From: Escherichia coli
GTDB taxonomy: Bacteria > Pseudomonadota > Gammaproteobacteria > Enterobacterales > Enterobacteriaceae
Assembly (NCBI RefSeq): GCF_036507355.1
Contig: NZ_AP027877.1
Direction: 5' to 3' (one strand)
DNA length: 64,000 bases
Position numbers and translations under genes: made by a program. Positions 37,015 through 40,053 of this stretch are shown in pieces. The notes below the pieces were generated by a model. The model was not told where the DNA came from. It was given only the letters and a program-made list of their open reading frames with translations, and made no database searches. Every line of letters starts with the position of its first letter. Positions within the stretch are counted from its first letter, which is position 1.

Positions 37015-37036
37015 AGTGTTGCCTTTTTGTTATCAA

Positions 37037-37066
37037 TAAAAAAGGCCCCCCGATTTGGGAGGCCTT
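37037..37066 (-). terminator. pheA attenuator terminator hairpin
   Basis: Minus strand: aaggcctccc-aaatc-gggggg cc followed by TTTTTT, between pheL and pheA. Confidence 0.75.
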
Positions 37067-37112
37067 ATTGTTCGTCTTCGCATTCTGTTTCACACGACGA
37101 AACGCCTCCCAT

Positions 37113-37160
37113 TCAGGGGAAGGTAAAAAAGAATGCGAAGAAAAACGGTGTGTGTTTCAT
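37113..37160 (-). CDS. pheL: pheA leader peptide, 15 aa (MKHTPFFFAFFFTFP)
   Basis: Minus-strand ATG 37158-37160 to TGA 37113-37115; seven Phe codons. Confidence 0.85.
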   Translation of the reverse strand: MKHTPFFFAFFFTFP

Positions 37161-37263
37161 GTTTGTTTCCTTAAGTGACTTTAGTACAGTACCCGTACTG
37201 TTTTCACGCTGTCAACAAAAAACGCGCCCGAAGGCGCGTTGGCGATACACTCAATATAAAGGA

Positions 37264-37659
<396 letters not shown>

Positions 37660-37852
37660 TCAAAATGTGTGATGGAAATCTCATAATTTTGTCACTTTTT
37701 GTCAACGAATCTTTTTTGTGAGAAATCGCAGGAAGAGGTGTTTTTTTACTTGAGGAATATCTCAAAGCGAGCCATATTTGATGAGATCGATAGTGACTAA
37801 ATCGCTTCAGTTTCACAACTAACAGAATAAAAAAACGGCAGCTCAAGGGCTG

Positions 37853-39278
37853 TAATGCCGATCAGTTAAGGATCAGTTGACCGATCCAGTGGCTGTGTAA
37901 GAATCCGGAAACGCTCACTCGTTTCCGGATTTTTTTATGCACATTGGACAGGCTCTTGATCTGGTATCCCGTTACGATTCTCTGCGTAACCCACTGACTT
38001 CTCTGGGGGATTACCTCGACCCCGAACTCATCTCTCGTTGCCTTGCCGAATCAGGTACTGTAACGCTACGCAAGCGCCGTCTTCCCCTCGAAATGATGGT
38101 CTGGTGTATTGTTGGCATGGCGCTTGAGCGTAAAGAACCTCTTCACCAGATTGTGAATCGCCTGGACATCATGCTGCCGGGCAATCGCCCCTTCGTTGCC
38201 CCCAGTGCTGTTATTCAGGCCCGCCAGCGCCTGGGAAGTGAGGCTGTCCGCCGCGTGTTCACGAAAACAGCGCAGCTCTGGCATAACGCCACGCCGCATC
38301 CGCACTGGTGCGGCCTGACCCTGCTGGCCATCGATGGTGTGTTCTGGCGCACACCGGATACACCAGAGAACGATGCAGCCTTCCCTCGCCAGACACATGC
38401 CGGGACCCCGGCGCTCTACCCGCAGGTCAAAATGGTCTGCCAGATGGAACTGACCAGCCATCTGCTGACGGCTGCAGCCTTCGGCACGATGAAGAACAGC
38501 GAAAATGAGCTTGCTGAGCAACTTATAGAACAAACCGGCGATAACACTCTGACGTTAATGGATAAAGGTTATTACTCACTGGGATTGTTAAATGCCTGGA
38601 GCCTGGCGGGAGAACACCGCCACTGGATGATCCCTCTCAGAAAGGGAGCGCAATATGAAGAGATCAGAAAACTGGGTAAAGGCGATCATCTGGTGAAGCT
38701 GAAAACCAGCCCGCAGGCACGAAAAAAGTGGCCGGGACTGGGAAATGAGGTGACAGCCCGCCTGCTGACCGTGACGCGCAAAGGAAAAGTCTGCCATCTG
38801 CTGACGTCGATGACGGACGCCATGCGCTTCCCCGGAGGAGAAATGGCGGATCTGTACAGTCATCGCTGGGAAATCGAACTGGGATACAGGGAGATAAAAC
38901 AGACGATGCAACTGAGCAGGCTGACGCTGAGAAGTAAAAAGCCTGAGCTTGTGGAGCAAGAGCTGTGGGGTGTCTTACTGGCTTATAATCTGGTGAGATA
39001 TCAGATGATTAAAATGGCGGAACATCTGAAAGGTTACTGGCCAAATCAACTGAGCTTCTCAGAATCATGCGGAATGGTGATGAGAATGCTGATGATATTG
39101 CAGGGCGCTTCATCGGGACGTATACCGGAGCTGATGCGCGATCTTGCAAGTATGGGACAACTTGTGAAATTACCGACAAGAAGGGAAAGGGCCTTCCCGA
39201 GAGTGGTAAAGGAGAGGCCCTGGAAATACCCCACAGCCCCGAAAAAGAGCCAGTCAGTTGCTTAACTGACTGGCATTA
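37853..39278 (+). mobile_element. IS4 insertion sequence (1426 bp) flanked by a 12-14 bp direct repeat cagctcaagggctg
   Basis: Imperfect terminal inverted repeats TAATGCCGATCAGTTAAG... (37853-) and ...CTTAACTGACTGGCATTA (-39278); direct repeat at 37839-37852 and 39279-39292. Confidence 0.9.
37937..39265 (+). CDS. insG: IS4 transposase (DDE), 442 aa
   Basis: [63 protein letters not shown]... Confidence 0.92.
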
Positions 39279-39315
39279 CAGCTCAAGGGCTGCCGTTTTG
39301 TGTTTCAGGTTTCTG

Positions 39316-40053
39316 TTATGTATTGCTGCTGTTTGCGGCGATGATTTTCGCTACTTTTTCAGCTTGCGCATTCATCTGCATCTGACGGTATGCATTTTCC
39401 ATCAGCGGCAGCGCATCACGCGTAGCCTGGGTATCCGGGTAGTCGCGCAACATGCCTTCTACGCGGTTAACGACGGCAACCCATGCGCCACGTTCTGTAT
39501 AGTACTCGGCCACGGAGTATTCATATTTCGCCAGACGATCTTTCAGGAATACCAGACGTTTGGTGGCATCGGTGGTGTACTGACTGTTTGGATAGCCGCG
39601 CACCAGTTTGGAAAAGTCACTAAACGCAGCTCGTGCATGTTGAGGATCGCGATCGCTACGGTCAACGCCAAAGAACCCTTGCAGCGCACTGTCATCCAGC
39701 GCCATATTGGTCAGGCCACGCATGTACATGACATAATCGATATTCGGATGGGTCGGGTTAAGGCGAATAAAACGATCGATGGCAGCCTGCGCTAACGGCA
39801 AATCGGCGTTTTTATAGTAGGCGTAGATGAGATCCAGCTGTACCTGCTGCGAATACGGACCAAACGGATAGCGATTATCTAACGCTTCCAGTTGCGTTAT
39901 TGCCTGTCTCCAGTTACCGTCCTGCAGCTTTTGTTGTGCAGTCGCGTAAATTTCATTTGGCGGATTATCAGGTACTTCTTCCTTTGACCCCGAGCAACCC
40001 GCCAAAAACAGGCTTAGTGTGGCGGCTGCCACCAGATATTTCATGCGCGTCAT
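39316..40053 (-). CDS. bamD: Outer membrane protein assembly factor BamD (TPR lipoprotein), 245 aa
   Basis: [50 protein letters not shown]... Confidence 0.95.

Follow-up and report, generated by a model that had tools for sequence, protein, structure and literature searches.

IS4 within the predicted bamD terminator of Escherichia coli: a recurrent target site with a 14-bp duplication

In the window analyzed here, a stretch of 64,000 nucleotides of Escherichia coli DNA (contig NZ_AP027877.1), a complete copy of IS4 lies directly downstream of the essential gene bamD, inside what appears to have been its transcription terminator. This raises the question of why the element is found at this position and what its presence there means for the transcription of bamD and of raiA, the next gene downstream on the same strand. 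The answer that we consider likely is that IS4 transposed into a target of the type that it prefers, that the spacing of this target set the length of the duplication, that the same site has been hit repeatedly in the species, that transcription from bamD would now terminate in the end of IS4 itself, and that the insertion is near-neutral.

IS4 and the terminator that it divides

The element is 1,426 bp long, has the termini TAATGCC...GGCATTA and carries imperfect terminal inverted repeats of 18 bp (Table 1). The same termini and the same length recur in about 45 further IS4 copies at 15 genomic sites, so the ends of the element are not in doubt; a sequence-only reading of this locus had suggested such a comparison as a check, and it returned the ends as they had been read. 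Nucleotide identity to RefSeq-annotated copies, labeled there as "IS4-like element IS4 family transposase / insG," was 99.0-99.8%, corresponding to 3-14 differences in 1,426 bp. The sole ORF of IS4 is intact and encodes a transposase of 442 aa with the Pfam domains Nterm_IS4 (PF13006, E = 3e-33) and DDE_Tnp_1 (PF01609, E = 1.4e-31). The substitutions T387I and P393S in this protein are private to the window copy among all copies compared, and the exact protein had no record in a collection of 15 billion proteins. At window position 37920 (IS4 position 68), the copy carries a C in place of the T of the commoner E. coli allele; the C makes the left-end hairpin perfectly paired and removes the upstream TTG start that is used by the 448-aa RefSeq form of the transposase. 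The element is a simple transposition product of the classical insertion sequence IS4, acting as expected.

Table 1. Features of the bamD-raiA locus, in window coordinates
Feature	Coordinates	Strand	Evidence or description
Phe leader (pheL attenuator)	37036..37161	-	RF01859, 132 bits; between raiA and pheA, as expected there
raiA (ribosome-associated inhibitor A)	37264..37605	-	Pfam Ribosomal_S30AE, E = 7.5e-23; raiA in matching RefSeq loci
Left outer target arm	37829..37838		AAAAAAA-CGG, A-tract plus 3 bp outside the duplication; on the minus strand, U7 tail of the former bamD terminator
Target-site duplication, left copy	37839..37852		CAGCTCAAGGGCTG, exact 14-bp repeat
IS4	37853..39278	+	Complete element
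IS4 left terminal inverted repeat, 18 bp	37853..37870	+	16/18 match to right end
Promoter-like site, TTGACC-16-AAGAAT with TG	37877..37904	+	Consensus scan
Left-end inward hairpin	37902..37936	+	Folding; 12-bp stem plus T-run
Transposase ORF	37937..39265	+	
Private substitutions in the transposase	39096 and 39113 (IS4 positions 1244 and 1261)		Allele comparison
Right-end inward hairpin	39239..39274	-	11-bp stem 39274..39249, 4-nt loop, then UCUUUUUCGG
IS4 right terminal inverted repeat, 18 bp	39261..39278	+	
Target-site duplication, right copy	39279..39292		
Right outer target arm	39293..39299		CCG-TTTT; on the minus strand, upstream stem arm of the former bamD terminator
bamD (yfiO)	39316..40053	-	Pfam YfiO, E = 5.8e-88

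The direct repeat CAGCTCAAGGGCTG that flanks IS4 is perfect, exactly 14 bp long and not extendable in either direction, and the probability of a chance 14-bp match at two fixed positions is about 4^-14. Joining the flanks with a single copy of the repeat gives AAAAAAACGGCAGC-TCAAGG-GCTGCCGTTTTGTG, and the site rebuilt in this way is 100% identical over 511 nt to the uninterrupted bamD-raiA spacers of several other E. coli strains. The site is contiguous in 5,016 of the 5,426 complete E. coli genomes. On the minus strand, the strand of bamD, the rebuilt site holds a GC-rich stem of 8 bp (11 bp with its A-U extension) followed by U7, and this stem starts, with its upstream arm, 19 nt past the bamD stop codon. 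The folding energy was -14 to -18 kcal/mol (z = -5.3), and none of 200 shuffled sequences folded as well. The rebuilt site thus has the textbook shape of a predicted intrinsic terminator. With IS4 present, each side retains a residual stem of only 4 bp and -3.2 kcal/mol, and because of this the native bamD terminator is destroyed by the insertion. The sequence-only reading had placed IS4 within the bamD stem-loop, with the terminator rebuilt by removal of the element and one repeat, and had described the stem arms as parted and the T-run as moved away, all of which our results bear out; a distance of 1.44 kb now separates the upstream arm from the bamD U-tract (complementary to 37829-37835). 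That reading had also asked for a check of the element ends on account of the 14-bp duplication, which proved genuine.

IS4 duplications are usually quoted as 11-13 bp. The range tabulated for the IS4 subgroup is 10-13 bp (PMC2266710, Table 1), and the duplication at bamD lies one bp past it. Since 14 bp was also found in every other occupied long-loop bamD allele that we examined, the length is reproducible, and it widens the quoted descriptive range as a minor addition.

The bamD coding sequence is intact, with 23 nt between its stop codon (39316-39318) and the right copy of the duplication. A search of Rfam found no RNA family within IS4 or the bamD-raiA spacer. The part of the window from 39293 to 64000, which includes an rRNA operon, clpB, patZ and pssA, had its best match among the 5,426 complete E. 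coli genomes at 99.2% over 24.7 kb.

Transcription out of bamD

A transcript leaving bamD passes through 23 nt of its old 3' UTR and the 14 nt of the duplication and then enters the right end of IS4. The first structure that it meets starts 5 nt inside the element, a hairpin on the minus strand with a stem of 11 bp and -17.5 kcal/mol followed by the interrupted U-tract UCUUUUUC. This hairpin shares sequence with both the right inverted repeat and the stop codon of the transposase gene, was the best terminator-like match on the minus strand in our scan and forms in both contexts that were folded. Rough d-scores, calculated with a formula of the d'Aubenton-Carafa type and serving only to rank the hairpins, were about 1 (borderline) for the right-end hairpin, about 36 for the native bamD terminator and about 14 for the raiA terminator.

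A second inward hairpin, predicted to be a stronger terminator, is present at the left end. On the plus strand, it folds at -24.1 kcal/mol in context (z = -7.1), and the hairpin alone (37902-37931 plus the T-run) folds at -16.8 kcal/mol, with a T-rich tail and a rough d-score of 11-28. It sits between the start codon of the transposase gene and the promoter-like site, a candidate for the transposase promoter, whose -10 hexamer overlaps the left arm of the hairpin, so that only transcripts from outside the element would carry the hairpin in full. Such a layout would stop incoming read-through yet spare the transcripts that begin inside IS4.

In the orientation found in the window, most bamD transcripts would stop at the right-end hairpin and its U-rich tract, about 30-45 nt inside IS4. 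This would lengthen the 3' UTR of bamD slightly, give rise to little RNA antisense to the transposase gene and leave raiA unaffected. Long untranslated antisense RNA is a typical substrate of Rho, which would curb any antisense RNA arising from read-through. The raiA ATG is 233 bp from the insertion, a distance from which the promoter region of raiA is presumably intact. A scan for consensus promoters found no promoter-like sites on the minus strand between bamD and raiA. Read-through from bamD that is partial, or even substantial, is possible, because the U-tract of the right-end hairpin is interrupted and its score is about 1 compared to about 36 for the native terminator.

The sequence-only reading had expected bamD transcripts to enter IS4, in antisense to the transposase, and to continue toward raiA. 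Its first half stands, since these transcripts must enter IS4; the continuation is not supported in that form, as the 11-bp right-end hairpin is met first. Taken to its full extent, this alternative holds that loss of the terminator lets bamD transcription through IS4 and into raiA, with a change in raiA expression and a transposase gene damped by antisense RNA, and we regard it as unlikely. The native terminator is certainly disrupted, the replacement at the right end is borderline with its interrupted U-tract, and the left-end hairpin lacks a U-tail on the minus strand. The orientation in the window is also the rarer one, found in 69 genomes compared to 318 for the other, which would fit a mild cost. 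However, the relevant strand does carry a hairpin of -17.5 kcal/mol with a U-rich tail just inside IS4, the next 1.4 kb would be transcribed as untranslated antisense RNA of the kind that Rho typically acts on, and any RNA that read through would encounter another hairpin ahead of the raiA region. Moreover, 69 genomes from a range of hosts, with several IS4 alleles, retain the window orientation, and a serious disturbance beside an essential gene is hard to reconcile with such persistence. The reading in which bamD transcription ends in the right end of IS4 is preferred, and the insertion is probably nearly harmless. A near-neutral insertion would account for its persistence in many lineages.

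Target choice and recurrence at bamD

The target of IS4 was examined at 15 distinct sites, with copies gathered by exact-protein look-ups and their junctions extracted; the S43 IS4 allele and cluster members contributed only three further sites. The duplication was 11 bp at two sites, the bamE terminator among them, 12 bp at eight sites, 13 bp at four sites as well as in a short-loop allele of the bamD target, and 14 bp at the bamD site only. When 24 half-sites were anchored at the cut, AAA occupied positions -6 to -4 in 20-23 of the 24, position -3 was C in 16/24, positions -2 and -1 were G or C, and C was found at +1 in 20/24 and at +4 in 18/24. The half-site consensus is AAAACSS|C, and the two half-sites at bamD read AAAAAAACGG|C and AAAACGG|C. 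The spacing between the tracts was N17-N20 in the 15-site sample, and the length of the duplication equals the distance from A-tract to T-tract minus about 6 bp. At bamD, the tracts are 20 bp apart, exactly AAA-N20-TTT, and the duplication is therefore 14 bp.

The mechanism suggested by these junctions is that IS4 picks an A-tract and a T-tract separated by 11-14 bp with about 3 bp more on either side, and that it cuts 3 bp in from either tract. What determines the duplication length would then be how far apart the half-sites lie, as opposed to a stagger of constant size. In nature, this pattern occurs most often in intrinsic terminators that work in both directions, with an A-run, a GC stem and a T-run. 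Of the 15 sites, ten folded at -14 kcal/mol or below, and 2.9% of random 41-nt windows taken from the window analyzed here reached -15 kcal/mol. The ten strong hairpins resemble the terminators of adhE/tdk, opgH/yceK, aroA, mug/rpoD, bamE and others. A hairpin is lacking at four sites, namely L040, with 0 kcal/mol, and L050, L035 and chaA/ldr, which fold weakly; these retain an A-tract at a distance of 3 bp from at least one of their cuts. Some half-sites deviate from the 3-bp offset. Because of these deviations and the sites without a hairpin, the target rule is to be seen as a tendency only.

In Shigella flexneri (L048/L049), IS4 is inserted in the hairpin downstream of bamE, the gene of a second Bam lipoprotein, with a duplication of 11 bp, and in Shigella dysenteriae (L050), the gene sbcD is interrupted by IS4 at a site without a hairpin, with a duplication of 12 bp.

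An alternative to the recognition of sequence is that IS4 reads DNA structure, a cruciform or hairpin extruded at terminators, and that its cuts are measured from the stem. The prevalence of strong hairpins (10/15) agrees with this, as does the fact that at most hairpin sites the duplication consists of 4 bp of stem, the loop and another 4 bp of stem, and at bamD the duplication follows the loop length (13 versus 14 bp). The palindromic nature of the duplication is confounded, as pairs of A-tracts and T-tracts in genomes are for the most part terminators. A general rule measured from the structure, by which the duplication equals the loop plus 8 bp, was dropped since the non-hairpin sites follow the A-tract offset. 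The use of the sites L040, L050, L035 and chaA/ldr makes recognition of structure distinctly improbable. We favor recognition of half-sites by their sequence, because the sites without a hairpin retain the A-tract 3 bp from the cut.

The sequence-only reading did not include the recurrence of the bamD site as a preferred target. IS4 was present there in the window orientation in 69 of 5,426 complete E. coli genomes and in the opposite orientation, with the transposase gene co-directional with bamD, in 318, together 387 genomes or about 7%. These counts ignore kinship, and most of the 387 occupied genomes could stem from few events; near-identical genomes are present among those listed, such as the CH423/425/458 strains and two assemblies of NCTC86. 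In a number of the genomes with the opposite orientation, the copy at bamD is the sole IS4. The 14-bp duplication and the cut positions are the same for both orientations, several different IS4 alleles were found at the site, and both flank haplotypes (A or G at window position 37823) were seen with both orientations. The target in IAI39 has a loop with 1 nt fewer, and IS4, here in the plus orientation, is flanked by a 13-bp duplication, CAGCTCAAGGCTG. The shorter target together with the shorter duplication means that the cuts were made at the same positions relative to the arms. ATCC 11775, Nissle 1917 and other genomes carry this short-loop allele, at 100% identity, without IS4. Based on these configurations, at least three of the insertions at the bamD site arose independently, and probably more. 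It is very improbable that the site is no hotspot and that one or two ancient insertions were spread by vertical descent and homologous recombination in the flanks: although the counted genomes are phylogenetically non-independent, many of them near-identical, and IS4 alleles could become homogenized through gene conversion from other copies, recombination in the flanks does not interconvert the three configurations (plus with 14 bp, minus with 14 bp and plus with 13 bp in the short-loop allele), both flank haplotypes pair with both orientations, and the adhE/tdk and opgH/yceK terminators are likewise occupied in both orientations.

The bias of 318:69 between the orientations may reflect selection or merely clonal sampling, and the window orientation could be mildly disfavored. 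In the commoner orientation, bamD transcription meets the stronger predicted terminator at the left end of IS4. Other observations concern the fate of the copies at this site. In E. coli strain 104 (L006), the IS4 at bamD is frameshifted by one additional base, has an altered end and is annotated as a pseudogene, so IS4 copies decay in place. Two loci (L028 and L029, at about 1400-2900) have IS4 with an adhE terminator half-site on the left, a bamD half-site on the right and flanks that form no matching duplication; such junctions are the signature of recombination, by inversion or translocation, between IS4 copies at adhE/tdk and bamD/raiA. A literature search for IS4 at bamD/raiA found no reports.

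Significance and relation to known systems

For this genome the insertion matters little, in that the end of an insertion sequence has taken the place of an essential gene's terminator, the coding sequence was not affected and only a minor effect is probable. Beyond this genome, the results provide a simple rule for the length of the IS4 duplication and show terminators to be natural targets of the element. The bamD-raiA spacer is a recurrent IS4 site that could serve in typing and is also a source of IS4-mediated rearrangements, the adhE|IS4|bamD junctions being an example. Annotators of 3' ends and operons in IS4-bearing strains should expect IS4 ends in place of terminators. It is possible, and we suggest it tentatively, that IS4 is a terminator-seeking element that brings terminators of its own: its transposase would anchor on two A/T-tract half-sites with a spacing variable by at least 4 bp, the duplication of 11-14 bp would reflect the geometry of the target, terminators working in both directions would be its favored targets, the inward terminators at its ends would replace the one that it splits, the insertion would be near-neutral, and bamD would serve as a landing pad in about 7% of the genomes.

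IS4 itself and the kind of target that it prefers are already known. The bamD terminator as a hotspot, the 14-bp duplication, the tracking of half-site spacing by duplication length and the predicted terminators at the ends are minor additions. The element in the window agrees with IS4, the founder of the IS4 family and a member of its IS4 subgroup (insG in K-12), in length, in termini and in a transposase with Nterm_IS4 and DDE_Tnp_1 domains, and differs from it in having a duplication of 14 bp and, in the transposase, the private substitutions T387I and P393S. In 1984, Mayaux et al. reportedly found IS4 within the pheS,T attenuator, at its terminator, and proposed AAA-N20-TTT as the target consensus. 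The type of target is shared with the bamD site, an intrinsic terminator hairpin between A and T runs. In contrast to that consensus, the spacing at the sites examined here is not fixed and ranges from N17 to N20, and the length of the duplication varies with it. The target arms at bamD also agree with the IS4 subgroup, for which a strong specificity for the arms is reported (PMC2266710). Our literature search on IS4 with hairpins or terminators, AAAN20TTT, the pheST attenuator and terminator-targeting insertion sequences returned nothing specific.

Protection against transcription from outside is a feature of IS10 and IS50, where it works by sequestering the ribosome-binding site. IS4 likewise has an inward hairpin with a T-run between its left end and the transposase ATG, but in contrast to the sequestration in IS10 and IS50, the IS4 structure is read here as a putative terminator. 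With respect to target choice, group IIC introns insert after intrinsic terminators, and IS1397 and ISKpn1 target REP/BIME sequences. Like IS4, all of these enter intergenic hairpin motifs, which spares genes and creates recurrent hotspots. The routes differ, in that group IIC introns retrohome on single-stranded DNA stem-loops and IS1397 and ISKpn1 use IS3-family transposases in the loops of REP elements, whereas IS4 is of the DDE cut-and-paste type and makes a duplication of 11-14 bp that covers the loop and the inner stem.
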